In this document: positions 15,192 to 41,419 of the stretch, piece after piece
Numbering within the stretch: the stretch's first letter is position 1
Layout: each line of letters starts with the position of its first letter
Source: Kiritimatiellia bacterium
GTDB lineage: Bacteria; Verrucomicrobiota; Kiritimatiellia; UBA8416; YA12-FULL-48-11
Length of the DNA: 64,000 nucleotides
Direction of reading: 5' to 3'
NCBI GenBank assembly: GCA_028716365.1
Contig: JAQUPZ010000001.1
Coordinates: 473,205 to 537,204, forward strand
The notes under the pieces: model-generated
Database searches by the model: none
The model's input: only the letters and a program-made list of their open reading frames with translations
What the model was told of the DNA's origin: nothing
Position numbers and translations under genes: made by a program

Positions 15192-15208
15192 TCAAATTCT
15201 CAGAAAGA

Positions 15209-15311
15209 GCGCCTGTAGCTCAATTGGACAGAGCCTGCCCTGTCGAATGATGGGGCGTCAGCCTCCGCCATGTCATTCGACATGGCGCCCTGCCGACTGA
15301 CAGGGCGGAGC
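15209..15311 (+). pseudogene. 5' 41 nt of tRNA-Arg(CCG) interrupted by three 20-22 nt hairpin insertions
   Basis: Removing inserts 15235-15256, 15268-15287 and 15288-15307 restores exactly GCGCCTGTAGCTCAATTGGACAGAGCGTCAGCCTCCGGAGC, identical to 15636-15676. Confidence 0.9.
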
Positions 15312-15317
15312 ATTAAA

Positions 15318-15590
15318 ATGAAATATTATTACGTTTACATATTATTGCTCTCCAATAATCAGCTCTATACCGGTTTCACCGCTGACTTGAGCGGTAGAAT
15401 TGCAGATCACAAGGACGGGAGAGTTAAATCAACACAATACCGCAGGCCGCTCGAGTTGATTCATGCGGAAAGTTACTGCCTTGAATCTGATGCCAGGCGC
15501 CGCGAAAAGTTTTTGAAAACAACGGAAGGAAAACACCTGCTTCGTCAGCAAATCAGGGATATCTTGCACTTGAAGGGTGTTATTGAGTAG
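15318..15590 (+). CDS. Stand-alone GIY-YIG nuclease
   Basis: YVYILL...YTG, conserved Arg (GRI) and Glu (RRE); the real start is probably 15318, not 15270. Confidence 0.9.
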   Translation: MKYYYVYILLLSNNQLYTGFTADLSGRIADHKDGRVKSTQYRRPLELIHAESYCLESDARRREKFLKTTEGKHLLRQQIRDILHLKGVIE

Positions 15591-15635: not shown

Positions 15636-15712
15636 GCGCCTGTAGCTCAATTGGACAGAGCGTCAGCCTCCGGAGCTGAAGGTTATGAGTTCGAGCCTCA
15701 TCAGGCGCACCA
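15636..15712 (+). tRNA. tRNA-Arg(CCG)
   Basis: Acceptor GCGCCTG/CAGGCGC+ACCA; anticodon arm TCAGC-CTCCGGA-GCTGA; T arm ATGAG-TTCGAGC-CTCAT. Confidence 0.97.
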
Positions 15713-15720
15713 TTACCAAA

Positions 15721-15757
15721 AATGGGTAGGTTGTAATATGAACCTGCCCATTTTTTT
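15721..15757 (+). terminator. Rho-independent terminator after tRNA-Arg
   Basis: AATGGGTAGGTT/AACCTGCCCATT stem followed by a T-run. Confidence 0.8.
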
Positions 15758-15977
15758 CATGCTTTCCCTAACAATCCTACCAAATCTGGACACCAACCTA
15801 CCCAAAAATGGTAACTTAGAGGTTTATTAGGGTTTTTTGAGGACCGGATGATAGCCCGGATGATAAATGAGGGGGGATTAGGAAAAATAAGCCCCTATAT
15901 CCATTACGATTTGATTCTTGATGAAGCTGAGAATTGGTCTAAAAATCACACATACCATAAGGGCTATTTGGTTTTTT

Positions 15978-19928: not shown

Positions 19929-20069
19929 TAAGGATCTACTGTATTCCTTTATGATGTTGGCGTTCTTCTCCTTTCTCTCAATGGGCAAGTAGCAATTTCT
20001 AACGGCATTTTCTAATTGGCGATTCTAACAATATTTAACGGCAGGCAATCAGGGCATTTAAGGGCATAC

Positions 20070-20116
20070 TTGAGTTTCTAATAATGGCGGAGTAGAATGG
20101 AAAACAGTGGGAGGGG
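20070..20116 (+). promoter_or_regulatory. Module B copy: sigma70-like promoter plus SD
   Basis: TTGAGT-N17-TAGAAT then AGTGGGAGGGG before the TTG start at 20123. Confidence 0.7.
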
Positions 20117-20122
20117 ATTATT

Positions 20123-21025
20123 TTGAACATCATCACTACAGCAGATGGTCAATATTACCGCCGCTGGGTAAACATCATACCTTCTTTATTTATTCCGGGA
20201 TCAGGGCACTTTCTCTCAGGTAGGAAAAAAGCTGGAATTATCTGGTTTTGTTTCGCTCTTCTACTTGGGGATAGGATGCTTTGGATCTTCTTATCTACAA
20301 AAATACCTTCATTGCCATACTCAACGATTTGTTACTGGATAGTCGCCCTTGTTTTTAGTCTGGTTGTTATGGCGGATTCATGTCGTTGTCCTATTCCGAA
20401 AATAGGTTTCAAAGGTTGGTTCGTATTTTCCGGTATATTTATTGTGACATCTTTTGTGCCTGTTTTTCTTGTCCATCAATTTCTAGTTCACCCATTCACG
20501 ATATCTTCAATGTCAATGTCTCCTACTTTTATTGGGGCAAAAAGGGATGCAAAAGGGAAACAATTGAGTAGGGGTGATTATGTTCTTGTTAATAAATTAA
20601 TTTACTATTTCAAAAATCCACAGCGAGGTGACATTGCAGTATTTAACATTTCCGGTGTTCAAGGACTTCAAAAGAATAAATATTTCTGTATGAGAATTGT
20701 TGGAATTCCCGGTGATACAGTAAGAATCAATCCGCCTTATATAATTGTAAATGGACAGAAACTTCTAGAGCCACCGATATTTGCAAAGATTTCTTCGAGA
20801 GAAAATGGTTATTCGGGATATTTATTTCCGCAGGCTTACAACAAAGCTTTTTATGAAACACCGAAAGATGGTATTCGCCTTTTTGATAATGAGTATTTGG
20901 TTTTTGGAGATAACGCCACGAATAGTTACGATAGTCGGTATTTTGGGGCAATTAAACGAAGCAGTATTATCGGTAAAGTTTTCTATATCTATGCTCCTGC
21001 TGAAAGAAAAGGGAGAGTGGAATAA
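20123..21025 (+). CDS. Signal peptidase I paralog with extra N-terminal membrane domain; catalytic Lys replaced by Met
   Basis: FTISSMSMSPT (box B), GDYVLVNK, RGDIAVF, YFCMRIVGIPGD (box D), GDNATNSYDSRYFG (box E). Confidence 0.85.
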   Translation: MNIITTADGQYYRRWVNIIPSLFIPGSGHFLSGRKKAGIIWFCFALLLGDRMLWIFLSTKIPSLPYSTICYWIVALVFSLVVMADSCRCPIPKIGFKGWFVFSGIFIVTSFVPVFLVHQFLVHPFTISSMSMSPTFIGAKRDAKGKQLSRGDYVLVNKLIYYFKNPQRGDIAVFNISGVQGLQKNKYFCMRIVGIPGDTVRINPPYIIVNGQKLLEPPIFAKISSRENGYSGYLFPQAYNKAFYETPKDGIRLFDNEYLVFGDNATNSYDSRYFGAIKRSSIIGKVFYIYAPAERKGRVE

Positions 21026-21119
21026 TTTCATTTCAGGTAAGGCTATAATAAGAAACAAATTAATGAACGCCCCTAACCAAAATTTAGAATGGCATTCGGT
21101 AAGGTGGCAGGAGAAATAA

Positions 21120-22022
21120 ATGAAAAAAACACTATTAATTATGTTCTTGTTCGCTCTCAGTATAGCAGAAGTAATACAAGCGGGTTCACCAGAGAAGAAA
21201 TGGGTCAAAGAACTACGAGAAAAACTGGAGTCTGATGGTTCTGTGTTGCTTTACTGGGAGTGCGACCATGGATGGAGGGATTGCAACTGCGGAGGTAATT
21301 ACTATATACCAGCAACTCGGAAGCAAATCTCCGACTCTCCCGTTTGGAACACTAACTCGCTCTTACCACCATTGTCGTTAGAAAAGGCGATTACGATTGC
21401 ACAGGCGGAACTGAAGCAGAAGAATCCGGACTATGACCAGTTTCGTTTATCTCAGGCATCTCTCTCTTTAATCAGTGGTATAGGAATTAACAGGGAGAAA
21501 TGGTGGTATTTCTTTAACTACCATGGAACTTCTCAAATTCGCCATGATAGATCGTTTCTTATATGTGTATTAATGGATGGCACTGCTCTTAAGCCTTGTA
21601 TTGTTGAACATAATCTCAAGACGTGGACTGATAAGGATAAGGTATTGCACGGTAAAATGACAGCTAAGGAAGATGATGCAATACGAAAAGATATCGAAAA
21701 GAGACTAGCTGCTATCATTGTCCCTGAGATCGACTTCAGGCAGGCTAATATTTTCGATGTTGTTGATGATTACAATCACTGTGTCGCTGAATATGGCACC
21801 GGAGCGGAAAAGAAAGAAGAAACACGACTTCAGATTAGACTTCACGAATCCGCTATAATCCAATCCTGTCCTCCATATGCTTTACCTATAGATGCTCCAC
21901 TTCTTGCGTTCTCTTGCAAGGATGTGTCGCTATTGGAAGTCCTGAAGATTACGGTAAATGTTTTACAGCTCAAAATGCACATGGAGGGGAATGTTGTCAC
22001 TCTGTATAATCCAAAGAATTGA
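21120..22022 (+). CDS. Secreted hypothetical protein with C-terminal secretin-N/STN-like domain
   Basis: Signal peptide; IIVPEIDFRQANIFDVV...DVSLLEVLKI...MEGNVVTL. Confidence 0.65.
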   Translation: MKKTLLIMFLFALSIAEVIQAGSPEKKWVKELREKLESDGSVLLYWECDHGWRDCNCGGNYYIPATRKQISDSPVWNTNSLLPPLSLEKAITIAQAELKQKNPDYDQFRLSQASLSLISGIGINREKWWYFFNYHGTSQIRHDRSFLICVLMDGTALKPCIVEHNLKTWTDKDKVLHGKMTAKEDDAIRKDIEKRLAAIIVPEIDFRQANIFDVVDDYNHCVAEYGTGAEKKEETRLQIRLHESAIIQSCPPYALPIDAPLLAFSCKDVSLLEVLKITVNVLQLKMHMEGNVVTLYNPKN

Positions 22023-22067
22023 CTCAAGTTCAACGGCGATTCAATGGGCGTAGTGAAGGATTAAAAG

Positions 22068-22517
22068 ATGAAACCACTAGATGCCACATTGATAGATGCA
22101 ACAAAGCCAAGCAAATGGGAAATTAGGTTTGAGAAGATTCCTGTTCTTGGTCGGATCTTCGAGTATGCCATGTATCAAGATAGAATCAGACCCATCGTTA
22201 AAGACATCAAGAAACAACTTAAAGAACGAGAGGGAATTGATGTTCGATCTTACTGGAATAATGACGACTGGCACATTGCATCCAAGTTGTTCAAGATTAT
22301 CAGTGAAACAATAGAATGGAAACCCTCTATGTTTATCCCTGATGATCCCTGTCGCATAGTATTTTGGGCATATCTTGATTGCCTTGATGCCGTTGATGCA
22401 CAGGAAATGATTGAGGACGAATTCAAATTCAAGTTTTCCGAGGAGGAGATAAAACTTACAAATAATTTCACAATGAAGGAACTCGTAGAATTGATTAAAT
22501 GGAAATCAAACCAGTAA
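22068..22517 (+). CDS. Hypothetical protein with ACP-like C-terminus
   Basis: LDCLDAVDAQEMIEDEFKFKFSEEE...TMKELVELI. Confidence 0.6.
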   Translation: MKPLDATLIDATKPSKWEIRFEKIPVLGRIFEYAMYQDRIRPIVKDIKKQLKEREGIDVRSYWNNDDWHIASKLFKIISETIEWKPSMFIPDDPCRIVFWAYLDCLDAVDAQEMIEDEFKFKFSEEEIKLTNNFTMKELVELIKWKSNQ

Positions 22518-22672
22518 TCGCCCTCTTCCTCGCCCTCTCAATTACACTTCAATACCCCGCTTTAATGTTTCCTAAAAGGCTTGGTAATACGCCGTTAAGT
22601 TGCCCGGTTAGAATTCATCCTTGTTTTTGTGCTGTTCTCTAGTTAATATCTAGCCACAATACTGGAGGACTT

Positions 22673-23845
22673 ATGAGGAAGCTGATTTCTGTTATGGTCT
22701 TAATCTTCTCGCTTTCTATTACCCATTTATCCATTGCTCAAGAAAACAACAAGAATGCAGAATTTGCTAATGCCCAAAAGATTTATCAGGAACAGTCTCT
22801 TGCGATTTCGCTAACCTACGCCGCTAAATCCAAGACTATTTTGGCTGAATACGCAAAAGAGCTGGATACCCTTGAACAGGTAATAGCGAAAAAAGCCGAT
22901 CTTAAAGGTGTTATGGCGGTTAGACAGGAGGAGGCTGATGTAAAATTAGCAAATGGCATTCCAGATAACGTTACTGACCAGACTCCAGTAGAACTGAAGG
23001 CTTTGAAAGAAAAATACAAAGGAATTATGGCAACAGTAGAATCTGACAAGAAGAAGGATCTTGCAAAACTGGCGACTCTATACATTGGTAGACTTAAGAC
23101 AATACAGGATACTTTGACCAAGAACTTAAAGATTGATGATGCCTTGGTGGTCAATAATGAGATAGCACAGGTTAAAGGAAGTATAGATTTGAAGACAAAC
23201 GAAATAGTTGGTGCTTCCAGTCAGATGACTCCTCAGAGTGCTGTTAAACCCGAAGAAAAGAAACCTGCTTCTCCTCCTGCGAACGCTCTAGTGGCAGGCG
23301 AAGGGAAGACTATCGTAACAGTGAATTCATCGATTGCGGGGAAGAAGTCACCACTGGAAGATGCTCTTGTCGTCATTTGCGATGCCGGTTTGAACTCGAC
23401 TGTTGCTCTGGGTCCCACGGGACAGGATGGAAAGGTGCAGCTCGATGTCAATGCCAAGACAAGGTATGACTTGATTGCGTTCCACAAGGAATACAAATTC
23501 CTGAGAGAGAAAAACATTCGTTTTTCAAAACCATTGGAGTTAACAATGTATCCGCTGCCCAAGGGGCAGTTGATGGGTGTCGTTGATCGTTCAGGTCTGT
23601 CCATATTTGACGAAGCAGAGAAGGATATACAAATCGGAACTACTTATGGCGAACACACCTCGTGCGACTTTCGTTGCATGAACAATGAGTGTTTGATTGG
23701 GTACGACAGACCGACGCTTACAATCATTGAAAGGTGCAGTCCCGGTCAGTCTTTCTTCATGAAGAAGGGAAAGAGGCGGGCAAAGTGTGATGTTCTATGT
23801 AGTCTGCCCTCCGGATTTGTAATCCAATATAAAGTTTCTCCGTAA
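22673..23845 (+). CDS. Secreted coiled-coil hypothetical protein
   Basis: SD GGAGG; signal peptide ending SIA; helical N-half and beta-rich C-half. Confidence 0.75.
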   Translation: MRKLISVMVLIFSLSITHLSIAQENNKNAEFANAQKIYQEQSLAISLTYAAKSKTILAEYAKELDTLEQVIAKKADLKGVMAVRQEEADVKLANGIPDNVTDQTPVELKALKEKYKGIMATVESDKKKDLAKLATLYIGRLKTIQDTLTKNLKIDDALVVNNEIAQVKGSIDLKTNEIVGASSQMTPQSAVKPEEKKPASPPANALVAGEGKTIVTVNSSIAGKKSPLEDALVVICDAGLNSTVALGPTGQDGKVQLDVNAKTRYDLIAFHKEYKFLREKNIRFSKPLELTMYPLPKGQLMGVVDRSGLSIFDEAEKDIQIGTTYGEHTSCDFRCMNNECLIGYDRPTLTIIERCSPGQSFFMKKGKRRAKCDVLCSLPSGFVIQYKVSP

Positions 23846-23995
23846 ATGGTAACTTAATGGTCTCTCTAAACCATTTCCCTAAACCGCCCCTCTTAGTCTT
23901 CCGAAGTAAATAGTTTCCCGCCCACATTACTCTACAAATTGTTATAACTTCTTGTAGTTGTTCAAAACGCAATTCTCCCTGCACTCTAACAACCC

Positions 23996-24041
23996 TTGAA
24001 TTTGGCTAATTGGCGGAGTAAGATGGGAAGAGTGGGAGGGG
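23996..24041 (+). promoter_or_regulatory. Module B variant: promoter plus SD
   Basis: TTGAAT-N17-TAAGAT, AGTGGGAGGGG, ATG at 24046. Confidence 0.65.
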
Positions 24042-24045
24042 AGTA

Positions 24046-24642
24046 ATGGATGTGATATTTACATTAGGATTTTGCGTTTTTCTTATTCTCCTTGTAATTC
24101 TCGCTTGGATTATGTTGAAAAAGGCGAAGTTCTATTTTTCCACTTCCAAATATTTCCCTGCATTTGTTTGTGGCGTTTTAGGGATGGTCTGTCTTGTGCT
24201 ACCCATTATTTTGCTCCTTGCTCCTGTTTGCATTACAGATGGCCATAGGTCAAACAGAACACAATGTATGAGTAATATACGCCAAATAGGAATATCGCTG
24301 TCTATGTATTCAGTGGATCATAACGAGCGATATCCTCAAGATTTACAGACTCTTGCTATAACAATGAAACTACCACCACGATTATTTATCTGTCCTTCGA
24401 GCAAACATATCGCAGGTTCTCTTTCGAATTTGAACGAATGGACTGATTACGTTTATATTTGTGATTCCAGTCCAACAAATGATCCAAACATGCCCATTGT
24501 TTTTGAGTTTCCAGCAAATCATAACGGTAAAGGAGGTAATGTTTTGTTAAATGACGGTTCAGTTTTTTGGCTAAATACTAAAGAATTCCGTAAGAGCATT
24601 CAGAAGCAATTACTTAATGACAATATGACGAAGAAGAAATGA
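24046..24642 (+). CDS. Prepilin-like DUF1559/H-X9-DG protein with N-terminal 2-TM module
   Basis: CMSNIRQIGISLSMYSVDHNERYP; NHNGKGGNVLLNDGSV. Confidence 0.8.
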   Translation: MDVIFTLGFCVFLILLVILAWIMLKKAKFYFSTSKYFPAFVCGVLGMVCLVLPIILLLAPVCITDGHRSNRTQCMSNIRQIGISLSMYSVDHNERYPQDLQTLAITMKLPPRLFICPSSKHIAGSLSNLNEWTDYVYICDSSPTNDPNMPIVFEFPANHNGKGGNVLLNDGSVFWLNTKEFRKSIQKQLLNDNMTKKK

Positions 24643-24670
24643 AAATGAACGCCCCTGAGCAAAATTTAAA

Positions 24671-25126
24671 ATGGCATTGGGTAAGGTGGATAAAAGCAGG
24701 TTTACCATGATTCGTTACCGTCATATTTTAACGTTGTCCCTGTTGTCTCTTTGTGTAGGCTGTTATTGGAATCTAGGTTGGTTCATGGCATTACAGTTCA
24801 TTGGTCTCATATGTCCAGTTGTAATTCCTATTCTTGTTGTGTGTCTTTTCCCGAAAATGTCATTTGGATTAATAGTCGGCACTTATGCTGTGATAGTTCT
24901 GATTACAACAGGCATCCGCAACTTTCTCTATGTTCTGTATGGTAATGGCTTAAACTATCTGTTGCACGACAGTGAAACACAGTTAGTTGTTATAGTATTG
25001 GCTGTCGAACAACTTATCCTTGGAATCATTACAATTGGAATCCTGACGCTATTAAGACGACGCAGAGCAATTTCCTCTAATCTTCGTCCCCCTCCGAATC
25101 GTCCCATCAATAACCCAAAGAATTAG
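24671..25126 (+). CDS. Hypothetical multi-pass membrane protein
   Basis: Four hydrophobic segments; the annotated ATG lies inside module C and 24708 is an alternative start. Confidence 0.6.
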   Translation: MALGKVDKSRFTMIRYRHILTLSLLSLCVGCYWNLGWFMALQFIGLICPVVIPILVVCLFPKMSFGLIVGTYAVIVLITTGIRNFLYVLYGNGLNYLLHDSETQLVVIVLAVEQLILGIITIGILTLLRRRRAISSNLRPPPNRPINNPKN

Positions 25127-25327
25127 GTCATCTTAACGCCATCTTCGGGCATTTGTTGGGCATTCTAAAACGGCACTCTCAATGGGCGTATTAGCATTTT
25201 CTCATCGGGCATTCTAAAATCAATTAGTATGGGCATTCTTAACGATTTCTTATTGGCGATTCTAACATTTAACGCAGGCAAGAAGGGCATTTAAGGGCAC
25301 TTGAGTTTTGAGAGGGGGAAGGATAAG

Positions 25328-25579
25328 ATGAGGAGAGTGAAGAAGAAAACAAAGAAAGTAAATATTCCTAGAAAACTTAGTCTTGTTCGCTTTAATGCTA
25401 CAGGACTGAACAAGAAAATGCTTAAAAAATATCCATTTAAAAAAGATGATACATATATTTTTTTAGGTGAGATTCCAAATATGGCTGGACATGTAGTTGT
25501 GTTAGATATCAAGAAACATAAGATTTATTCAGGTTATCATATTGAAAACTTTGTCGAACTTGCAGACGACAGCTTATGA
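25328..25579 (+). CDS. Small basic hypothetical protein
   Basis: ORF follows module B; YIFLGEIPNMAGHVVV...GYHIENFVEL. Confidence 0.6.
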   Translation: MRRVKKKTKKVNIPRKLSLVRFNATGLNKKMLKKYPFKKDDTYIFLGEIPNMAGHVVVLDIKKHKIYSGYHIENFVELADDSL

Positions 25580-25923
25580 ACATTCTTCTTTTCGTTGCAG
25601 TTTTAGTGTCTGTAGTTGTTTTAATATGGGCAGTTAGGATTTCATGGAAGAAAAGAGAAGAAGTTGTTAAAGCCCAAAAACCCAAACAAGTCCTGAAGTT
25701 CTTTGCGATTATCTTGTTTGTCATCGGCTGTGTAAATCTTTTTATGTCTATCAGAGAGGCTCAAGAGATTTGTGCCTTTGTAAATGGTTTTGATACCAAG
25801 AAAGTAATGTTCAGTAATTACTTATCTTCAGAGTTAACAACATTCCTAATTCCTGTTGTTGTATCAGGCGTTATGTATCTGCTTTCGTTAACTATGCCTT
25901 GGAATCGGAAAATAAAAGAATAA
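25576..25923 (+). CDS. Hypothetical membrane protein
   Basis: ATGA coupling to the upstream ORF; three hydrophobic segments. Confidence 0.65.
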   Translation: MNILLFVAVLVSVVVLIWAVRISWKKREEVVKAQKPKQVLKFFAIILFVIGCVNLFMSIREAQEICAFVNGFDTKKVMFSNYLSSELTTFLIPVVVSGVMYLLSLTMPWNRKIKE

Positions 25924-26031
25924 CGTCTTCCCTTCTCCCATTTCTCCCCCGCATTCTGAAATCAATTAGCAGGGCATTTAACGTCCCTCTCATTGGGCAA
26001 GTAGTATTTCTAGATGGCAGGGGAGAGGGGT

Positions 26032-27036
26032 TTATTTCTTATTATAAATTGGGTTTGCTATAAAATTCTTAGCGGCTTGTTTTGCGGTTTCAATCTGAGC
26101 AGGCAACAATTTCTTTTCTAATACTCGCCCTTTTTCTACAGCTTGGTCGATTCCATTCGTACCAGCAATTAAAAACCATTTATATGCTTCAATATTATCT
26201 TCTATTATACCGAGTCCATTAACATAGCAAAGTCCTAGGTTGTATTGAGCCGTTGCATATCCCTGTTCGGCAGATTTACGAAACCATTTAATAGCTTCTA
26301 CCAGATCTTTTTCTACACCTTTACCATTGGCATAGCAAAACCCCAAACTGCACTGAGCCTCTGCATTCCCTTGCTCGGCAGATTGTTGAAACCACTTAAT
26401 TGCTTTTACATAGTTAGTTTCTATACCTTTTCCGCTGTAATAACATAATCCCACGAAGTACTGAGCAAGTGCGTTTCCCTGTTTAGCAGCCTTGAGATAC
26501 CACTTAACGGCTTCTACATGATTCGTTTCTACACCTTGCCCGTCATAGTAACATGATGCCATACTCAACTGAGCATATGCATTTCCTTGTAGAGCAGCTT
26601 TTTGATACCATTTAACGCCTTCAACAAAATCTTTCTCAACACCTTCACCGTAGGAATAGCAAAATCCTAGACTGAACTGAGCCTCTGACAATCCCTGTTC
26701 AGCAGCCCTTCTGTACCACTTAACCGCCTCTAGTAAATCCTTCCCCAGACCCTCACCTTTTTTGTAACACCCCCCTATGTTATATTGAGCCTGAGCCAAC
26801 CCTTGTTCAGCGGATTTTTTGTACCACTTAACGGCTTCAACCAAATTTTTTTCAACACCCTTACCATTGTCGTAGCAACACCCCAGTTCGAATTGTGCCT
26901 TTACGTCGCCTCCAATAGCTTTGGCTTTAGTTTGTTCAAAAGTGGCTTCATCTGAAAGTTTTGGTGAAACACATCCAGTAATTATCGCACAACACGCTGC
27001 AATAATACCGATGCTCAATGTTGATGTTATTTTCAT
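26032..27036 (-). CDS. Sel1-like repeat lipoprotein
   Basis: Lipobox IITGC; seven AQxxLGxCYxxGxGVEKD repeats. Confidence 0.92.
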   Translation of the reverse strand: MKITSTLSIGIIAACCAIITGCVSPKLSDEATFEQTKAKAIGGDVKAQFELGCCYDNGKGVEKNLVEAVKWYKKSAEQGLAQAQYNIGGCYKKGEGLGKDLLEAVKWYRRAAEQGLSEAQFSLGFCYSYGEGVEKDFVEGVKWYQKAALQGNAYAQLSMASCYYDGQGVETNHVEAVKWYLKAAKQGNALAQYFVGLCYYSGKGIETNYVKAIKWFQQSAEQGNAEAQCSLGFCYANGKGVEKDLVEAIKWFRKSAEQGYATAQYNLGLCYVNGLGIIEDNIEAYKWFLIAGTNGIDQAVEKGRVLEKKLLPAQIETAKQAAKNFIANPIYNKK

Positions 27037-27097
27037 CTACTTCAACTCTACCACGCCCATTTTCCTAGGCAATTCTAAACGGGCATTCTAACGGCAC

Positions 27098-27125
27098 TTG
27101 AGTTTCATTCAGTAAAGGTTATGAT
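27098..27125 (+). promoter_or_regulatory. Module B promoter
   Basis: TTGAGT-N16-TATGAT, then GGAGGG and ATG at 27146. Confidence 0.6.
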
Positions 27126-27145
27126 GCTGGCAACTGGAGGGTAAT

Positions 27146-27619
27146 GTGTTTTGTACGGGGAAATCTATTCTTGTTATTTTTCTGTCCCCACTCCTTGTCG
27201 TCGCTTGGATAATGCTGAAAAATGCCATATTCTACTTTTCCCGTTCTAAGCATTTGCCTGCCTTTGCTTGTGGGGTTGTTGGTGTTGCCTGCCTTGTCTT
27301 GCTTATTATGGCGATTTTTAGTGAAAGAACTCGTTACACTCAAAGCGATCCGATACCAAAGACGAGAACCGCATTCCGCACAGCTCATGCTGCCATTGTT
27401 GTATACCGCCATGAGTACGGAATATACCCAAAATCATTTCAGGATATGACAAGGGATAAAAATCAAAAACATATCACATTTTTAAATGATTTATCGGATC
27501 TGCAAGACGCTTGGGGACAATGCATTCGATATACTACAAATTCAAGGGGGTTCGAATTGAGATCATCAGGAAGAGATAAAACATTCGACACACTAGATGA
27601 TATAGTCGAGAAATACTGA
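27146..27619 (+). CDS. Pseudopilin GspG-like protein with N-terminal 2-TM module
   Basis: YRHEYGIYP...DAWGQCIRY...FELRSSGRDKTFDTLDDI. Confidence 0.75.
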   Translation: MFCTGKSILVIFLSPLLVVAWIMLKNAIFYFSRSKHLPAFACGVVGVACLVLLIMAIFSERTRYTQSDPIPKTRTAFRTAHAAIVVYRHEYGIYPKSFQDMTRDKNQKHITFLNDLSDLQDAWGQCIRYTTNSRGFELRSSGRDKTFDTLDDIVEKY

Positions 27620-27747
27620 GAAAAGCACTAATCGCCATTATGAACGTCCTTCTATAAATACCCTCATCGCCCATTTCTTCCTCTCCCTCTCATTGGGCGG
27701 GTAGCATTTCTAAGTATCTCAAGAGGAGAATCGTTTAAGCAGTAGAT

Positions 27748-28224
27748 ATGAATGTTCAGCATCTTGTATTGCCTTTGGTCATATGCTTGTTGGTCTACTT
27801 GATTTTAATCGGCGGTACGAATTGGCTTTCACGACCTATACGACGAATGCTTATTCTTTTATACGTTTTTCTACACATTGCGAGCTGGGGACTAATGCAT
27901 TCCATTGTGTTCATCCAATTTAGGAACGAAATACGCTCACTACACAACGATGCTTTGTCTAATATAAAACGAGGTGTAATAGAAGACGAACCACCGTGTT
28001 TACCAGTGCATAATTCTGACCAAAAGTATACTAACGAATGGATACAGGTGAATCCAATTCCTCGGTACAACGTCTTAAGCATCGCTCCCATTCCGTTTAT
28101 TCTTATTGCGAATGAGAGCTTCCAGTTAGGTATTGATTGGAAAATGGAAGAGACAGCGACGTATGTATTTACGGGTATTTCAGTCGAACAAGTGATGGCA
28201 GAATGGGACTGGAAGTGTTTTTAG
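27748..28224 (+). CDS. Hypothetical membrane protein
   Basis: Two N-terminal hydrophobic helices; bounded by modules. Confidence 0.6.
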   Translation: MNVQHLVLPLVICLLVYLILIGGTNWLSRPIRRMLILLYVFLHIASWGLMHSIVFIQFRNEIRSLHNDALSNIKRGVIEDEPPCLPVHNSDQKYTNEWIQVNPIPRYNVLSIAPIPFILIANESFQLGIDWKMEETATYVFTGISVEQVMAEWDWKCF

Positions 28225-28324
28225 TCTTTGCCGTTATTGTAACAGGAAGCAAATCACCCTCCTCCTTAAACATCCCCCCTCGTCGGCGTATTATTTCTAA
28301 ACGGGCATTCTTAAAAGGGCATAC

Positions 28325-28368
28325 TTGAGTTTCTAATTATGGCGGAGTAGAATGAGGAAAGTGGGAGG
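28325..28368 (+). promoter_or_regulatory. Module B copy: promoter plus SD
   Basis: TTGAGT-N17-TAGAAT, AGTGGGAGG, ATG at 28372. Confidence 0.7.
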
Positions 28369-28371
28369 CGT

Positions 28372-29244
28372 ATGAAAACCAATTTAACCATGAAACAAAT
28401 AACTTCCTTGCGATGGCTTGTCTTGTTCCTCATAATCACCTGCACCTGTTACTTGAGGGCAGATCAGGGCACAAATGGGATAACCAAAATATCCTTACCC
28501 GATGCTTCTGTATATGAAGGCGAGATGAAGGACGGCTTGTTCAATGGCAAGGGCGTTTTGACCAATGCAAGCGGCTACAGATACGAAGGTGAGTTCAAGA
28601 ATGGTCAATACGATGGCAAAGGCATTCTCATCTATTCTAATGGTGGCAAATACGATGGCGATTTCAAAGACGGGGCACGAACAGGAAAAGGTGTTCTTAT
28701 ATTTCGTAGCGGTGAAAGATACGAAGGCGATTTCAAAAACGGGGAATTCGATGGTAAAGGTGTCTTCTTTTTTATCAGAGGGGATGCATGTAAATATGAC
28801 GGGGAATATAAGAAGGGGCAACGGGATGGCAAAGGCATTCTTACTTTACGAGATGGTGCAAAGTATGAGGGAGAGTTTGTTGATGGCGTGAAAAATGGCA
28901 TTGGAACTTATATTTATGCTAACGGGGTTAAATATGAGGGAGAGTTTAAGAATGGCAAAAGTGAGGGGAAAGGCGTTATTTCTTATGCTAATGGGGATAA
29001 GTATGAAGGAGATGTTAAGAACGGCAGTCCTGATGGCTTCGGCGTTTCTACTTACCGAAATGGGCATCAAAGAAAAGGAGAATATCGTGCAGGTCAATAT
29101 GTCGGGAATAAATTATTTTTAAAACATATTGCATTAATATTTACTATAGGATTTCCCATCAGTTTAATTTTTAACATTGTTCTGATATTGAAGTTACGGC
29201 GAAAGACTCCCGAAAAGCAGAAGGATGAACAGACCACAAAATAA
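28372..29244 (+). CDS. MORN-repeat protein with signal peptide and C-terminal membrane anchor
   Basis: Eight YEGExKxGxxxGKG repeats plus a partial ninth. Confidence 0.9.
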   Translation: MKTNLTMKQITSLRWLVLFLIITCTCYLRADQGTNGITKISLPDASVYEGEMKDGLFNGKGVLTNASGYRYEGEFKNGQYDGKGILIYSNGGKYDGDFKDGARTGKGVLIFRSGERYEGDFKNGEFDGKGVFFFIRGDACKYDGEYKKGQRDGKGILTLRDGAKYEGEFVDGVKNGIGTYIYANGVKYEGEFKNGKSEGKGVISYANGDKYEGDVKNGSPDGFGVSTYRNGHQRKGEYRAGQYVGNKLFLKHIALIFTIGFPISLIFNIVLILKLRRKTPEKQKDEQTTK

Positions 29245-29317
29245 TATAGCCCCCCCTCAACGCCGATTCAAAGTGGTCGGTAAGTGGGGGAATGTTCGAA
29301 TTTAGAAAGGAAGGATC

Positions 29318-29890
29318 ATGAAATATTCTATGATGATATGTCTTGTGAGCATGGCGGTATTGACATTTATTGTACTTGCTGATTCTGAGGATTCTGCCGA
29401 TGTTCATGGGGCAATTGGAATCCAGAGAGGAACGCTTGTTGCCGAAGTCAGTGCTCTACAATCTCTCCGTAAAGGAAATACTTCTGAGGCTATTGAAACG
29501 CTAGAACGACACTCTTACGTCACGGCAGTCATCTTACTTGAAAACCCTGTGTGGAAAACAGATTTAGCAGTTCAAATGTTCGCTGTGGAATTAAAACATT
29601 ATCGGAAACAACATGCACAACCGGAATCGAAATGGACAGTTACAGAAAAACGTCTTGAAGAATTACTCAAGGAACTGAAGGAAGGCAATCGCACAATTAT
29701 TCCAACGGGAGCTGTTATCGTTAAACAAGATTCCAAATGTTTATATTACAAGAAACAGTGTCGTTCATGTAGTTTTTTGTCAGAGCAACAGATTGGAACA
29801 ACGCTTCCCAAGGGCATGGCAACAATCAGTTCAGACTTTACATGTCCAAAATGCGGGAAGAAACAAGACGTTAGAATAGACATCAAATAA
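29318..29890 (+). CDS. Secreted hypothetical protein with C-terminal Zn-ribbon
   Basis: Signal peptide; CRSC...CPKC. Confidence 0.65.
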   Translation: MKYSMMICLVSMAVLTFIVLADSEDSADVHGAIGIQRGTLVAEVSALQSLRKGNTSEAIETLERHSYVTAVILLENPVWKTDLAVQMFAVELKHYRKQHAQPESKWTVTEKRLEELLKELKEGNRTIIPTGAVIVKQDSKCLYYKKQCRSCSFLSEQQIGTTLPKGMATISSDFTCPKCGKKQDVRIDIK

Positions 29891-29896
29891 CATTAA

Positions 29897-30601
29897 ATGA
29901 ACTCCCCTAACCAAAATTTAAAATGGCATTCGGTAAGGTGGATAAAGCGGATTGCCTGCATTGTAATTATCGGCGTTCTACTTGCGATAGCTATTCCTTT
30001 CTATATTCAGGAAAGAAACCATGGGGCTGAAAATGCATGGCTTAAAAATCGCAAGATCATTAATGCAGGAAAAACACAAGCAGAACTGGCACAAATGATG
30101 GGCTATCCTACAAACAATCTCTCTACGGATGAGGACATAATTAGAATGAATCGTATTTATGAACTTTTACCTAAAAGATCTTGGGATGACGCTCTTGTAT
30201 GTGCGAACCAAATAAGCAATGCCAGCAACAGGACGTTGCTTGTGTCTGTCGTAAATAACATGAGAGAAGCAGATAGTCATCGATCAATACAAGAGAGGCG
30301 TGATCACGATGAGCTTCAAAGAATAAGGAAGAACGCTGGAGAAATCGAAACTTCCATATACCAATCTGTAGCAAAATTTTACCAAAAGAATAAGTTTTTA
30401 CCCATGTCAACGGATGAGCTTGCAAAATATTTCCCAAACAAGGCTCTTGTAAATGAGATGACAAACTGTGTTATCTCCGTATCGTCAAATATGTTCAGTA
30501 TTACTTACAAGGTTCGTGGGGATAAAATGAATAGAAAAGAACACGTCCGTCTTAAGGCGGAAATGCGTGACGGGGGGGTGCATGTCACAGGAATCCATTG
30601 A
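29897..30601 (+). CDS. Pilin-like protein whose N-terminus is encoded by repeat module C
   Basis: MNSPNQNLKWHSVRW (module C) then IVIIGVLLAIAIPFY. Confidence 0.65.
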   Translation: MNSPNQNLKWHSVRWIKRIACIVIIGVLLAIAIPFYIQERNHGAENAWLKNRKIINAGKTQAELAQMMGYPTNNLSTDEDIIRMNRIYELLPKRSWDDALVCANQISNASNRTLLVSVVNNMREADSHRSIQERRDHDELQRIRKNAGEIETSIYQSVAKFYQKNKFLPMSTDELAKYFPNKALVNEMTNCVISVSSNMFSITYKVRGDKMNRKEHVRLKAEMRDGGVHVTGIH

Positions 30602-30704
30602 TAAAGCTAACGTCCCTCTCATTGGGCAAGTAGCATTTCTAATTGGTGGGTTTAGATGTTCTTCCATTCTTTCCCTGCATTTCAATTTCTGTTAATCTCT
30701 TTAC

Positions 30705-31385
30705 ATGGATTCAAGTCCTAATGCTCAATATAAATTGCCCCTGTGGTATTATCCGGGCTTTGTTCTCCCATTTGCACTGATTTTGTTAGTGCTCTTAGGA
30801 ATGGTTTTCACTTTACCTCCAAACGTCATAGACCCTCGCAAATACCCAGCTTTTATGGATGGCGGAGAGGACTGGGGCGGTTCAAACATCTTCTTTTACT
30901 CTAGGGTTGTGATGTTGCTTATGGGCTTTCTTGGTTTCCTGTCCCTTGGTTACTTGAAGCCTGCCCCTGATTGGGAAAAGATACCGTCTAAAACAAGGTT
31001 GGTATTGTTCCAATTTAAGTCACACCTATTATGCTTCTTTTTTTATTTTATATTAGTTCTTTTAGACCGTGATTCGATGGGTTTCGTCAATTGGCTGGAA
31101 ATGTTTTGTTGGTATATTTCCAGTGCCTATTTCGGAGTTCTACTTTTAAGTAAGGGGGCTTCACGAGGTATTTATCAGTTGTCGGGAATAGTCAGTTTTA
31201 TTTTACTTGTATTTGGTTTTTACTGCGGTTTCTGGCTAACGGGAGCAGAGTTTCAGGCTGATGCAATCCCATTTTGGAAGTTACTTATAAGATTATTTAT
31301 TCAGATGGCAGTTTACATAGTAGGAATGAGCATTTGGTCTTCGGCTATAACAAGAACGCAACAATCACTCTCCACAGTTAACTAA
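30705..31385 (+). CDS. Hypothetical multi-pass membrane protein
   Basis: About six hydrophobic segments. Confidence 0.65.
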   Translation: MDSSPNAQYKLPLWYYPGFVLPFALILLVLLGMVFTLPPNVIDPRKYPAFMDGGEDWGGSNIFFYSRVVMLLMGFLGFLSLGYLKPAPDWEKIPSKTRLVLFQFKSHLLCFFFYFILVLLDRDSMGFVNWLEMFCWYISSAYFGVLLLSKGASRGIYQLSGIVSFILLVFGFYCGFWLTGAEFQADAIPFWKLLIRLFIQMAVYIVGMSIWSSAITRTQQSLSTVN

Positions 31386-31429
31386 TTGGCGTATTAGTAT
31401 TTCTCATTGGGCAATTTCTAACGGCATAC

Positions 31430-31458
31430 TTGAGTTTCGGAAGAGGGCGGGGTAGAGT
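31430..31458 (+). promoter_or_regulatory. Module B promoter
   Basis: TTGAGT-N17-TAGAGT. Confidence 0.55.
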
Positions 31459-31507
31459 CAGGAGAAATGGGGGGATTGTGCGAATATTTAAATGCTCATT
31501 GCTGGTA

Positions 31508-31897
31508 ATGAAAACGAATCTGTCAATTGTTGTTATGATTGTTTTATGTGCATGTTTGTTTTCTTGCGGTAAACCAGTTCTTAAAAAGCACTATGTAAAA
31601 TCTGCTCAGAATCCCTTTGATTTAATGATGGATCGCTTGTCGTTTGAAGAGTTTGAGCAAGAGATTATCAAACATCCAGAGTTAATAAATCACAAAGACC
31701 CTTCTCCTAATATTCCAGAGAGTTCAAGGGGTAGCATTCTGTCTGGTGCTGCTATTCTTATGAAAACAAACCATGTAAAAATGTTGATTTCCCATGGTGC
31801 TGATGTTGATGAGGCTATTGACTGGAACTCTAAATATGGTTCAACAAATGCGATAGAACTGTTGATAAAGATCAGCAGAGAAATAAAAAAACAGTAA
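31508..31897 (+). CDS. Lipoprotein with ankyrin-like repeat
   Basis: Lipobox LFSC; VKMLISHGADVD. Confidence 0.7.
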   Translation: MKTNLSIVVMIVLCACLFSCGKPVLKKHYVKSAQNPFDLMMDRLSFEEFEQEIIKHPELINHKDPSPNIPESSRGSILSGAAILMKTNHVKMLISHGADVDEAIDWNSKYGSTNAIELLIKISREIKKQ

Positions 31898-32004
31898 ACA
31901 GCATTCTAATCGACATCTTAACGTCCCTCTCATTGGGCAAGTAGCATTTCTCCCCCGCATTCTAAAATCAATACACTGGTGAATACCGATGATAAAACGG
32001 GACT

Positions 32005-32284
32005 GGTTACAATGTGAACATGCCCATTCTTTTCCAGTTTTCCTGACAATCTTACCAAATCTTTTTAGTAACCTACCCCAAAATGGTAACTCAGGATGGC
32101 GAATCTGATACTTACACCAATGTACGTAATATGTCGGTTATTGGTCTAAGGTGACATTTCTTGTGTTTCCATGCGATAATTCCACAGTAATTATAAAAGA
32201 AATGCCACACCACGAGTGACGGAATTCGACTAGTTCCGTTACTTTATAGGGGCGAAAGGAAATGCGCTTTCGCCCCTTCTTTTT
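32005..32284. repeat. Diverged copy of the tRNA-Arg downstream region plus a structured motif (homologous to 33665-33948)
   Basis: Shares terminator remnant, ATGGTAACT, GTCTARGGTGACATTTCTTGTG and GGGGCGAAAG/CTTTCGCCCC hairpin with 33665-33948; a third partial copy is at 32581-32623. Confidence 0.85.
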
Positions 32285-32285
32285 A

Positions 32286-32424
32286 TCCGTCTTCGCAGAA
32301 GACCCCGGAATTGGAGTCCGCGGGATGAATGCGGATTTTGCTACGCCGGATTCCACAAAGAAACTGCGGGCTTCCAGCCTTCGCCAAGAAGAGGCTATGG
32401 CCTGGCATACACGTTAGCCCGCAG
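32286..32424. repeat. Cluster of nested REP-like palindromes
   Basis: TCCGTCTTCGC...GCTACGCCGGA split by a 43-bp insert; CCAGCCTTCGCCAAGAAGAGGCTATGGCCTGG inside CTGCGGG...CCCGCAG. Confidence 0.6.
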
Positions 32425-32700
32425 AGCTTCATTTAAAATATAATTAATTCCCTGTTTCTCCCCCGCATTCTAAAATAAATTAGCAGGGCATTTACACTAC
32501 CATATCAGCTGGACTCGTTTGCGGGGGCAGGTCACATACAAGGGCAAAATTACTACTTATTCTCACCTAAGTAATATATCGGTTGTTTGTCTAGGGTGAC
32601 ATTTCTTGTGCTTCCATGTGATAGTCCTGGTGCTGACGAATTGGACCTGTGAACAGGAAATTAATCACTGGCAAGTATCCGAACGGTTAAGGGGCGCATA

Positions 32701-33042
32701 ATGAATTCAAGATTTAAAGCAGCTATCAGGCGGTCATTCTCTTATCTATTTGAGAAGTATGGTTTCAATTTTGTTCCTGTTGTAAATGATTTTGACGGGA
32801 ATGTCGTTATTGCTGAATCTGATAGTTTGCGATTTCGTTTTATTCACGACAGAAACTATGTTTTCCTGGATATCAATAACACATTAGGCTCAAATCAGTG
32901 GGTGGGATTCTATAAAATCCTAGACCCATTGAAAAAAAGCGGGCAAATTGAATGTAACTATAAATACTCAAACAAAATAAAAGTGATTAGTAAATTGCTG
33001 TCTCAGTGTTTGCCTGCGATACAAAAAATCAGTATTCAATAA
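32701..33042 (+). CDS. Hypothetical protein (immunity-protein-like size and composition)
   Basis: 113-aa ORF; no recognised motif. Confidence 0.55.
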   Translation: MNSRFKAAIRRSFSYLFEKYGFNFVPVVNDFDGNVVIAESDSLRFRFIHDRNYVFLDINNTLGSNQWVGFYKILDPLKKSGQIECNYKYSNKIKVISKLLSQCLPAIQKISIQ

Positions 33043-33169
33043 GGTTAACGAAGAGTGTTACATTTACCCGGTCTTAAACTTCCTTCATCTTCTGCTTCTT
33101 TAATTTTCCTCAGCTTGTTTCCTTTGTTCTCGACGGCATTCTGATTTTCCTTTTTAATAACAGGCATAT

Positions 33170-33559
33170 ATGAAAATACTGATTGCCGATGATGAAACAA
33201 AAATCAGGTCAATGTTCAAGATGATACTTTCCTCTGAGTTTCCAGATAGCGTTATAGATTTTGCTGTTAATGGGGCAGAGGCGGTAGATTATTTCCAGAA
33301 AGGTAATTATGATATTTTGTTGCTTGATCTCAGTATGCCCGTAAAAAGCGGTTGTCAGGCTTTTTTAGAGATTCAAGAAATATGCAGGAAAGAAAATCTA
33401 AAAACGCCATATGTAATATTTTGTACCGGACTTCCAATACCGGAAGAACTTGAAGAAATAGCTGCTGATACCTCCCGTTGTGCCATACTTCAAAAACCAG
33501 TAACGTATGAGGATCTAATTGGAACGTTTCAAGCACTGATAAAGCCGAATAATTCCTGA
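33170..33559 (+). CDS. Single-domain response regulator (CheY-like)
   Basis: ILIADDE, LLLDLSMP, FCTG, QKP. Confidence 0.92.
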   Translation: MKILIADDETKIRSMFKMILSSEFPDSVIDFAVNGAEAVDYFQKGNYDILLLDLSMPVKSGCQAFLEIQEICRKENLKTPYVIFCTGLPIPEELEEIAADTSRCAILQKPVTYEDLIGTFQALIKPNNS

Positions 33560-33602
33560 GCTGAACAAACTAAATAATATTGGATTATTGTCGGTTAATC
33601 GC

Positions 33603-33645
33603 CCTCCGGAGCTGAAGGTTATGAGTTCGCGCCTCATCAAGCGCA
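33603..33645 (+). repeat. att-like copy of the tRNA-Arg 3' half
   Basis: CCTCCGGAGCTGAAGGTTATGAGTTCGCGCCTCATCAAGCGCA, 41/43 to 15667-15709; similarity continues through the terminator to 33752. Confidence 0.9.
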
Positions 33646-34076
33646 TACTTGCCAAAAATGAGCAGGTTGCAATATAAACCTGCCCATTTTTTTCAGTTTT
33701 CCTAACAATCCTCACAACTTTTGCCAGTAACCCTCCCGGAAATGGTAACTTAGGAGGATGAATTTACTACTTAAACTAAGCTACGTAGTATATAGGTTAT
33801 TTGTCTAGGGTGACATTTCTTGTGCTTCCATGTGATAATTCCCGCCAGATATAAATTTGTAAAAATAGTCCTCCCAGTAGTGGCGAATTCGACCAGTTCG
33901 CCATTTGCTATAGGGGCGAAAGTGGACGCACTTTCGCCCCTTCTTTTTATTAGCCTTCTCCACTCCCAGTAAAACCTGTTCTAGTTGCCCCATTTGAATC
34001 AACTTGAGGACTAAAAGAATCCGGTCTTGTTTATGATAAGGGCGCTTGATAGCTTTCCTCTTATTAACAGGTATAT

Positions 34077-34474: not shown

Positions 34475-34752
34475 GAACCTATCTCAAAATTGTTTTGGCC
34501 ATGACACAGCGAGTTCTGCCCTGACCGCCAGGCGGCGGCGAAGGGTCAATACCCTCAGCGGTCTTGGCCCCTCACCGATAACGCCGCGGCAGAGCAGAAG
34601 ACGCTGTGCCCAAGATGGTTGCATGGATTTTACGCCGGAGCTTTGTTGCGCGTGCAAGGGAAAGACCTTTGCGGGTATTCCACCTGCACGCGCGCCTTGC
34701 CCGGCACAAAAATCCATGCAATCATGGTTCAAACCAATTTTGAGATAGGTTC
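34475..34752. mobile_element. 278-bp MITE-like element
   Basis: Perfect 18-bp TIR GAACCTATCTCAAAATTG (34475-34492)/CAATTTTGAGATAGGTTC (34735-34752), TA on both sides; internal inverted repeat TGCATGGATTTT/AAAATCCATGCA; GC-rich interior, no transposase. Confidence 0.85.
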
Positions 34753-41356: not shown

Positions 41357-41419
41357 ATACTTGCTTGGTCCTGCGGTATCCTGCACCCTTTACTCTGTAA
41401 AACGGGGAGGGTACCTGAG

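Follow-up and report, generated by a model that had tools for sequence, protein, structure and literature searches.

A promoter-like sequence block reused before unrelated genes in a low-GC variable island of a Kiritimatiellia bacterium

Introduction

Why would a run of small, unrelated genes carry what looks like one and the same promoter at the head of unit after unit? The question is raised by a 64,000-nucleotide stretch of DNA from a Kiritimatiellia bacterium (GenBank assembly GCA_028716365.1, contig JAQUPZ010000001.1, positions 473,205 to 537,204 of the forward strand), the whole of which we call the window and whose numbering is used throughout. A first-pass annotation of the window had singled out six promoter-type sites and had read them as a portable sigma-70 promoter, joined to a Shine-Dalgarno (SD) sequence, that supplies the genes of an integron array. 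Upon analyzing these sites and their relatives in other genomes, we lean towards a reading in which they are copies of a lineage-specific promoter block of the sigma-70 type, reused before different genes in a low-GC variable island and not in an integron.

Results

Six copies of one block head six gene units

Each of the six sites proposed in the first-pass annotation proved to be present on the + strand as TTGAGT/TTGAAT-N16/17-TAnnnT (6/6), with a plausible start codon 7-24 nt downstream. The copies are listed below, where bit scores refer to the profile described in the following section and the G-box is the G-rich run of bases abutting the -10 hexamer.

19990..20122, + strand: module copy 1 (30.4 bits), with an upstream homology arm (~19990 to 20069), -35 TTGAGT 20070-20075, G-box GGCGGAG 20086-20092, -10 TAGAAT 20093-20098 (N17 spacing) and SD AGTGGGAGG 20106-20114; it leads into the signal peptidase I operon, which begins at TTG 20123 (genes 20123-21025, 21120-22022 and 22068-22517).
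23971..24045, + strand: module copy 2 (36.3 bits), with -35 TTGAAT 23996-24001, G-box 24012-24018, -10 TAAGAT 24019-24024 (N17 spacing) and SD AGTGGGAGG 24031-24039; it leads into the gene for a DUF1559-like membrane protein (ATG 24046).
25215..25336, + strand: module copy 3 (27.8 bits), with a long upstream homology arm, -35 TTGAGT 25301-25306 and -10 TAAGAT 25324-25329 (N17 spacing), and without an SD leader.
27073..27145, + strand: module copy 4, the most divergent (25.0 bits), with -35 TTGAGT 27098-27103, a 16-nt spacer without G-box, -10 TATGAT 27120-27125 and SD GGAGG 27136-27140; it leads into gene 27146-27619, whose product has an N-terminus paralogous to the protein at 24046.
28296..28371, + strand: module copy 5 (31.7 bits), with -35 TTGAGT 28325-28330, G-box 28341-28347, -10 TAGAAT 28348-28353 (N17 spacing) and SD AGTGGGAGG 28360-28368; it leads into the MORN-repeat protein operon (ATG 28372; four genes, to 31385).
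31405..31477, + strand: module copy 6 (33.5 bits), with -35 TTGAGT 31430-31435, G-box GGCGGGG 31446-31452 and -10 TAGAGT 31453-31458 (N17 spacing); it leads into a small lipoprotein gene (GTG 31478 or ATG 31508, end 31897).

The units headed by these copies hold 1-4 genes each, such that six blocks serve ~17 genes, and their products are mostly small lipoproteins, membrane proteins or secreted repeat proteins.

The sites exceed chance by a wide margin. The pattern TTGART-N16/17-TANRNT (R, purine) occurs 9 times in the 64-kb window against 1.42 expected, a number reached in 0/100 shuffles; for the extended -35 nonamer CTTGAGTTT, the count is 5 where 0.66 would be expected, and all 5 fall inside the module sites; and the 30-nt pattern CTTGARTTT-N8-GGCGGRGTARRRT occurs 4 times against 0.00 expected. 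Similarly, AGTGGGAGG is found exactly three times in the 64 kb (20106, 24031 and 28360), each time with a start codon 4-8 nt further on, confirming that three copies continue into an SD sequence before a start codon. A generic promoter scan of the window returned 55 sites against 54.8 expected and hence no excess, indicating that the signal is a specific shared sequence and not promoter-likeness as such.

The block is a discrete sequence family with position-specific conservation

We built a profile from 15 copies, 6 from the window and 9 from related sequences. Its own copies score 25-45 bits, while the next-best match anywhere scores 8 bits; in the window, the profile recovers all six copies within 20.0-31.5 kb and none in ~45 kb of core DNA. 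Judged by these alignments, the six sites are copies of one discrete homologous sequence family. The consensus of the 15 copies is T(C/T)TAA(C/G)GGCA(TA)C TTGAGT TT N8 GGCGGRG TArrrT, with a core that spans about -50 to -7 in a promoter-like block of 45-110 bases overall: some copies share 60-70 nt more upstream, and some an 18-24-nt purine-rich leader with a strong SD sequence. Sigma-70-type hexamers and spacing (TTGAGT/TTGAAT-N16/17-TAnnnT) are present in 14 of the 15 copies, including all six in the window.

The first-pass annotation had described the hexamers and their spacing as conserved and the spacers as variable. This holds for the first 8 spacer bases, which do vary. It does not hold for the last 7, which read GGCGGRG in 4/6 window copies, or for the bases flanking the -35 hexamer, where the six-copy alignment has a conserved C before it, TT after it and GGCA(TA) further upstream; indeed, copies 20070 and 28325 (copies are also named by the first base of the -35 hexamer) show one difference in 40 bases (98% identical), and homology extends upstream as well, copies 20070 and 25301, for instance, being 84% identical over 82 nt. 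Mean information over the 15 copies, most of those outside the window being pattern-retrieved, is 1.80 bits in the -35 hexamer, 1.17 in the -10 hexamer and 0.92 in the spacer, whose first 8 variable bases carry ~zero and whose G-box carries 1.3-1.5 bits. When 14 copies are aligned, C, TTGA, T, TTT, G(-15), T(-12), A(-11) and T(-7) are the same in all, and variation falls on the inner positions of the -10 and on the first 8 bases of the spacer. The copy in related locus L007, where the GC content is 62.7%, retains the AT-rich hexamers and the G-box while its variable spacer bases are now GGCCGCCT, which fits selection on a protein-binding site and not neutral descent. All copies have a co-oriented start codon 7-50 nt downstream except L008_1536, an orphan that is the sole copy without an open reading frame (ORF) downstream and in which the -10 hexamer and G-box are degenerate.

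Two direct repeats accompany the block. In several modules, the first of them makes up the region about -60 to -38, and where it stands without -35 and -10 hexamers it may represent a decayed module. The second, repeat B, also has a copy in a relative's array (L008), 2/30 bases off the consensus.

25979..26017, + strand: repeat A, CCCTCTCATTGGGCAAGTAGCATTTCTAA; others at 19967, 27679, 30608 and 31919.
25209, 25951 and 32465, and L008 2490: repeat B, GCATTCTAAAATCAATTAGYAGGGCATTTA, a direct intergenic repeat.

The same block precedes unrelated genes within and between genomes

The block was sought by exact-pattern scans of genome contigs and of Joint Genome Institute (JGI) metagenome contigs, with off-pattern neighbours being found beside the matches. 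The scans matched two Lentisphaerae-labelled metagenome-assembled genomes (MAGs) and JGI metagenome contigs; one further match, in an Oscillospiraceae MAG, is due to chance. Altogether the block is present in at least 3 other Lentisphaerae-type assemblies, one at 63% GC, and the named organisms closest to one window protein carry the label Kiritimatiellae. The window itself comes from a landfill metagenome, and its lineage is accordingly referred to here only as Lentisphaerae/Kiritimatiellae-type.

Local alignments covered 110 nt upstream and 60 nt downstream of each core. Alignment scores within the upstream sub-families were 39-48 against a null maximum of 17, while downstream similarity was otherwise at the null level. 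Copy 20070 (signal peptidase I operon) is 84% identical over the 82 nt already mentioned to copy 25301 (80-aa basic protein), 80% over 111 nt to L008_2144 (82-aa membrane protein, another genome) and 87% over 68 nt to copy 28325 (MORN protein); copy 23996 (DUF1559-like) is 88% identical over 56 nt to L008_3396 (single-domain response regulator); and another upstream pair is 83% identical over 89 nt. In a BLASTP comparison of the 12 first genes, the only related pairs were those at 24046 and 27146 (N-terminal 49 aa) and the MORN pair; L013_12990 had been taken in the wrong frame, and its paralogy with L008_4549 rests on leader sequences and the downstream DNA score. The block is attached to at least 9 unrelated gene families in several genomes, and homology among copies stops at the -10/+1 boundary. 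Since the block precedes non-homologous genes and its homology ends at that boundary, we favor promoter reuse.

Two gene families show what becomes of the block over time. The L012 homologue of the MORN protein (53% identical) lies in a different neighbourhood and has kept both the block and its GGAAAGTGGGAGG leader, with the early spacer being different. The response-regulator gene is headed by the block in L008 and also in a landfill strain that co-occurs, a contig of which joins 27106 to 34075 through TAATGGTGGAGGGGTAAGATATCAGGCATCAC; no block was found at window 34077 or in 5 loci of relatives (47 kb), including that of an 81%-identical orthologue. At the level of sequence, this family shows promoter turnover. 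Two other searches added no copies: the route to orthologous promoters through the MORN protein led to loci L014-L017, which are without the block, its matches being driven by repeat similarity and including a giant-virus contig, and landfill contigs searched with an 80-nt module query returned only the window's own two near-identical copies.

The block fits a sigma-70-type promoter better than other sigma classes

Next, we compared the block with other promoter-like sequences in the window. Upstream of tRNA genes, the sites read TTGAGT-17-CAATAT (tRNA-Arg), TTGAGT-17-TAAGTT (tRNA-Pro, 38488) and TTGATT-17-TAGTAT (tRNA-Phe), and core genes have -35 boxes of the type TTGACC, TTGACA, TTGATA or TTGCCA, 16-18 nt from TAnnnT-like boxes. 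The block hexamers thus fit the presumptive housekeeping promoter type. The tRNA-Pro site had been put down in the first-pass annotation as the same TTGAGT-N17-TAnnnT; its hexamers are there as described, but they are all that it shares with the block (profile E=19), and it does not belong to the family.

Like group 1 sigma-70 promoters, the block has TTGAnn/TAnnnT hexamers with a 16-17-nt spacer, and stands directly upstream of co-oriented genes, with window tRNA genes sharing its -35 hexamer; T(-12), A(-11) and T(-7) appear to be its most conserved -10 positions, as in that class, in an alignment whose copies from outside the window were mostly pattern-retrieved. Unlike group 1 promoters, it carries a G-rich box (-19 to -13) where an extended -10 would have TGn, conserved -35-flanking bases and direct-repeat-like GGCA/TCTAA units upstream, and its uniformity among the promoters of unrelated genes is unusual.

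Other sigma classes were compared in the alignment and rejected. The sigma-54 consensus is GG-N10-GC (TGGCAC-N5-TTGCW) with invariant spacing; the block has GGCAC followed by TTGAG and TTTnn, lacks GC at -12 and has a 2-nt indel (GGCA-TA-C) that varies the spacing. For sigma-28 (FliA), with the consensus TAAA-N15-GCCGATAA, the best register is 2 nt too short and without the CGA core. No conserved AAC...CGT pair exists at the spacing of the extracytoplasmic function (ECF) consensus, AAC-N16/17-CGT.

On the reading that we prefer, a sigma-70-family RNA polymerase would recognise the TTGAGT -35 and the TAnnnT -10 at 17 +/- 1 nt. The sigma factor would most simply be the housekeeping one, because two window tRNA genes use the same -35 hexamer. 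Transcription would start ~7 nt past the -10, so that the mRNA would have a short leader with an SD sequence or be nearly leaderless, and the G-box and upstream GGCA/TCTAA repeats would probably be additional sites contacted by the holoenzyme or by a shared regulator. The portable promoter envisaged at first sight is borne out in its geometry, position and orientation and in the occurrence of one family before unrelated genes, within and between genomes; its activity is predicted from sequence.

Several points weigh against this reading. Most copies outside the window were found by a search in which the hexamers and the G-box were already specified, so that conservation there is partly built in, and only ~4 bystander copies are unbiased for the -10 half: L008_2144 (GGCGGAG-TAAATT), L008_1536 (GGCGATT-TTAGAG) and two landfill variant contigs (GGAGGGG-TAAGAT and GGCGGGG-TAAGAT). 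At the -10, these bystanders agree with the conservation seen in the other copies, one of them being the degenerate orphan. The ascertainment by pattern and the small genome sample are the main limits of the comparative argument; the absence of the block from the 47 kb of protein-selected loci of relatives makes its distribution patchy. Public RNA runs were searched for the window sequence and none matched, nor did 3 small SOLiD metatranscriptomes of a relative's study. The G-rich tract by the -10 and the bases flanking the -35 are atypical of housekeeping promoters and may point to a dedicated sigma factor or regulator. Finally, in copies with a short distance to the start codon, the G-box could be a distant SD sequence (13-15 nt from ATG), with the transcript starting further upstream.

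Leaders and start codons fall into two classes

The copies form two classes according to how far past the end of the -10 the first plausible start lies. In the first, 18-24 nt with a strong SD sequence, are window copies 20070, 23996, 27098, 28325 and 31430 and the L012 copy. In the second, 7-9 nt without an SD sequence, are L008_2144, L008_2926, L008_4512, the L013 and L010 copies and, if GTG 25337 is used, window copy 25301. In L008_3396, the start codon lies 14 nt past the -10, bringing to seven the copies with starts at 7-14 nt. The SD sequence had been taken as part of the module; a shared SD leader is indeed found in the three AGTGGGAGG copies and before the L012 MORN gene, but not in these seven, and in the alignment the leader is an optional extension of the block and not a fixed part of it. 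If the block is a promoter, the short class implies mRNAs that would be leaderless or nearly so.

Copy 25301 had been flagged at the outset with the caveat that its -10 overlaps the annotated start codon, and ATG 25328 does overlap it. The likely alternative, GTG 25337, is 7 nt past the -10, the bases that follow the -10 (GAGGAGAGTG) line up with the leader found in other copies, and a variant contig from the same metagenome reads TAAGAT-GGGGAAGA-ATG joined to 25351. Given the leader alignment and the variant contig, the real start most likely lies 7-17 nt after the -10.

A regulon signature, gene-unit exchange, neutral duplication and a 5' untranslated region motif account less well for the block

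Could the copies resemble each other not because a DNA segment was reused but because one protein binds them all? In such a regulon, a dedicated alternative sigma or transcription factor would bind the G-box, the bases flanking the -35 and the upstream GGCA/TCTAA repeats and so co-regulate genes for envelope and exported proteins, with the similarity among copies reflecting convergent or maintained binding sites. This explanation overlaps with promoter reuse and does not exclude it. Conservation is position-specific and reaches beyond the canonical hexamers, the genes that follow it form a functionally coherent set (lipoproteins, membrane proteins, signal peptidase I and secreted repeat proteins), a genome of 63% GC has kept the block, and it is a discrete class that is absent from core-gene promoters in the window. 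On the other hand, sub-families share 60-110 nt of contiguous homology that includes non-motif bases, across genomes and before unrelated genes; this is longer than a binding site needs and argues for common descent of a segment. Moreover, the block fits no sigma-54, sigma-28 or ECF geometry, and of the two ECF-type sigma genes in the core flank (40772-41386, - strand; 48443-48985, + strand), neither is preceded by the block. As an alternative to reuse, we regard a regulon as possible but rather unlikely.

A more speculative idea, which we consider doubtful, is that the block, the A and B repeats and the C-rich tracts described in the last section mark the junctions of a gene-unit exchange system, either independent of a recombinase or using an unknown one, in which the ~50-110-nt promoter-bearing repeat would be both expression signal and recombination substrate. 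If so, small exported-protein genes would be swapped in and out of tRNA-linked arrays by a functional analogue of the integron with a promoter at every junction, and many units would be expressed as leaderless mRNAs.

That the copies are neutral leftovers of recent local duplication or gene conversion, devoid of promoter function, seems very unlikely to us. The clustering of copies within 11.4 kb and the 98% identity of copies 20070 and 28325 over 40 nt would suit this explanation, but the block is kept in other genomes where homologous proteins are only 53-63% identical, and at 63% GC; substitutions are concentrated in the early spacer and inner -10 and are not evenly spread; and all copies but the degenerate orphan lie 7-50 nt before a co-oriented start.

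Slightly less probable still is a transcribed cis-regulatory RNA or translation element, that is, a motif of the 5' untranslated region and not a promoter. The block is purine-rich, its G-box lies 13-15 nt from the start in short-leader copies and three window copies run into a strong SD sequence; against this stand RNAalifold, which found no conserved secondary structure in the block (0 pairs), Rfam, which gave no match to it at the gathering threshold, and the strict 17 +/- 1 spacing of TTGA-type and TA...T-type hexamers, which is promoter geometry.

The copies lie in a tRNA-linked variable island and not in an integron

The gene run is enclosed by an intact tRNA gene and a partial repeat of it:

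15636..15819, + strand: left boundary of the island, tRNA-Arg(CCG) (15636-15712) with its conserved downstream flank.
33603..33753, + strand: right boundary, where the 3' part of tRNA-Arg and its flank recur incompletely as a direct repeat (33603-33695 is 89% identical to 15667-15759).

Between them, the region from ~15.8 to 33.6 kb has 39.5% GC, compared with 47.5-47.9% in the flanks. In relative L013 (= L005, Lentisphaerae bacterium RIFOXYA12_FULL_48_11), tRNA-Arg lies only ~1.4 kb from the homologue of gene 34752-36014 (63% identical), with a single module-headed gene in between. As the relative has one gene in ~1.4 kb at the same site, the gene run of the window is, by this comparison of loci, a lineage-specific expansion at a hot spot. 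The locus thus shares with tRNA-linked genomic islands an intact tRNA-Arg, a partial 3' direct repeat, low GC and content missing in a relative; unlike them, it has no integrase gene detected at the tRNA-proximal end, where the two ORFs adjoining tRNA-Arg encode secreted proteins.

The first-pass annotation had placed the sites in an integron array, an assignment that we reject. Pfam scans of ~60 ORFs (nearly all those of at least 100 aa in the 64-kb window) matched neither PF00589 nor any other recombinase. The intergenic regions examined for inverted repeats yielded none, the recurring repeats being direct, and single-stranded folding of the intergenic repeats, compared with shuffles, revealed no attC-like hairpins (z 0.25, -0.20, -0.18, 0.55, 1.58 and 1.07); only the spacer between convergent genes, 25924-26031, folds better than shuffled sequence (z -2.05). 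Like integron arrays, the locus holds numerous small accessory genes, mostly co-oriented and unrelated to each other, with short repeats recurring between them, and its content differs between relatives; unlike them, each unit has its own putative promoter, and the locus is bounded by tRNA-Arg repeats as a genomic island. With no IntI, no attC hairpins, no common promoter Pc (six promoter-like blocks for six units and ~17 genes, which is ordinary operon organisation) and one gene reversed (the Sel1-repeat gene 26032-27036, on the - strand), even an integron-like array whose cassettes bring their own promoters is the least credible explanation that we considered.

A non-coding element of ~60-110 nt (TTTCCCTAACAATCCTACCAAATCT...CCCAAAAATGGTAACTTAG...) marks internal and outer boundaries at 15763-15870, 32038-32094 and 33697-33753 and is, by eye, ~90% identical to L013 12286-12395, which follows a GIY-YIG gene; the three flank-repeat copies (15763, 32038 and 33697) suggest serial accretion or rearrangement. 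An interrupted (~20 nt) copy of the tRNA-Arg 5' half lies at ~15206-15266, upstream of a GIY-YIG gene (15270-15590) that stands before the intact tRNA-Arg; in L013 (12048-12296), the GIY-YIG gene is downstream of the tRNA instead, suggesting a mobile GIY-YIG unit associated with tRNA-Arg. Lastly, two landfill runs contain a short contig, of the same depth as the main strain, in which 15830 is joined to 22610 at 90% likeness and 6.8 kb, including a leucine-rich repeat gene and the first module operon, are skipped. The joint was not reproduced at 95% and could represent a structural variant, a second locus or an assembly ambiguity.

Relation to known mobile promoters and significance

Putative mobile promoters have been described as upstream sequences that recur before non-paralogous genes, within and between genomes, with 80% identity or more along 50 nt or more, without an associated transposase and with a mobilisation route that is unknown (Matus-Garcia, Nijveen & van Passel 2012; summarised in PMC3575422). 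The block has this identity (5 pairs at 80-88% over 56-111 nt) and precedes non-paralogous genes. That survey sampled only -150 to -50 from the start codon (PMC3575422), whereas block homology runs from ~-110 to -7 relative to the presumed transcription start site (TSS) and includes the -10. Relative to the start codon, this is about -135 to -25 in long-arm copies and only about -75 to -20 in others. Also unlike those mobile promoters, block copies are clustered in a tRNA-linked island, and part of them have a common SD leader. Uncultured Lentisphaerae/Kiritimatiellae-type genomes presumably fell outside the 2012 survey, which covered complete genomes. Correia, ERIC and REPIN elements (cited in PMC3575422) are, on the account given there, likewise short dispersed intergenic repeats able to supply promoters; they have terminal inverted repeats or palindromes, while the block has neither and always stands in one orientation to the gene. 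Taken on its sequence, the family appears to be an instance of already known promoter reuse in a poorly studied lineage and, on present evidence, not a new kind of element.

If the block is a working promoter, it would open a first view of how promoters are built in a branch of the Planctomycetes-Verrucomicrobia-Chlamydiae (PVC) group that is almost uncultured, including the -35/-10 preference, a G-rich element that replaces the extended -10 and possible leaderless starts; a literature search found no promoter or TSS work on Lentisphaerae/Kiritimatiellae-type taxa. The block also offers a clean case of promoter reuse in nature, in which homology breaks off sharply at the presumed transcription start, and it bears on how horizontally acquired or shuffled accessory genes come to be expressed. 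In practical terms, the block could serve as a portable expression signal in genetic tools for these bacteria.

Other elements in the window

C-rich, G-poor tracts follow the stop codons of most units (22502-22572, 23851-23910, 25911-25971, 27633-27698, 28238-28300 and 29225-29273). The five clearest spacers have 22-26 C and 6-10 G per 70 nt, compared with background frequencies of 0.19 for C and 0.21 for G, and intrinsic terminators are absent at these tracts, which possibly act as insulators between units in the manner of Rho-utilisation sites.

Three junctions inside operons (21063-21107, 24645-24689 and 29897-29941) carry a 45-nt element, ATGAACGCCCCTAACCAAAATTTAAAATGGCATTCGGTAAGGTGG (peptide MNAPNQNLKWHSVRW). 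At 29897, it forms the N-terminus of a 234-aa protein; elsewhere, it lies in frames of 18-21 codons that abut or overlap the next ATG. It was sought in related loci and not found there.

A different promoter-like sequence, GTGACA-N18-GATAAT/GATAGT with TG, is present in three copies (32151-32277, 32596-32625 and 33810-33941), two of which are followed ~70 nt later by strong intrinsic terminators (32248-32277 and 33912-33941). These sites and terminators are candidate small-RNA genes upstream of response-regulator genes. Close by, in each of the four landfill runs, contigs cover the segment 32282-32432 20-50x as deeply as its flanks (up to ~810 vs ~16), and on account of this depth it is a sequence shared by many genomes or copies in the community.

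At the far left of the window, directly after a gene for a VWA-domain protein (404-1093), a type II hammerhead ribozyme (RF02276) is matched at 1095-1164 on the + strand at the Rfam gathering level (42.9 bits, E 2e-05).

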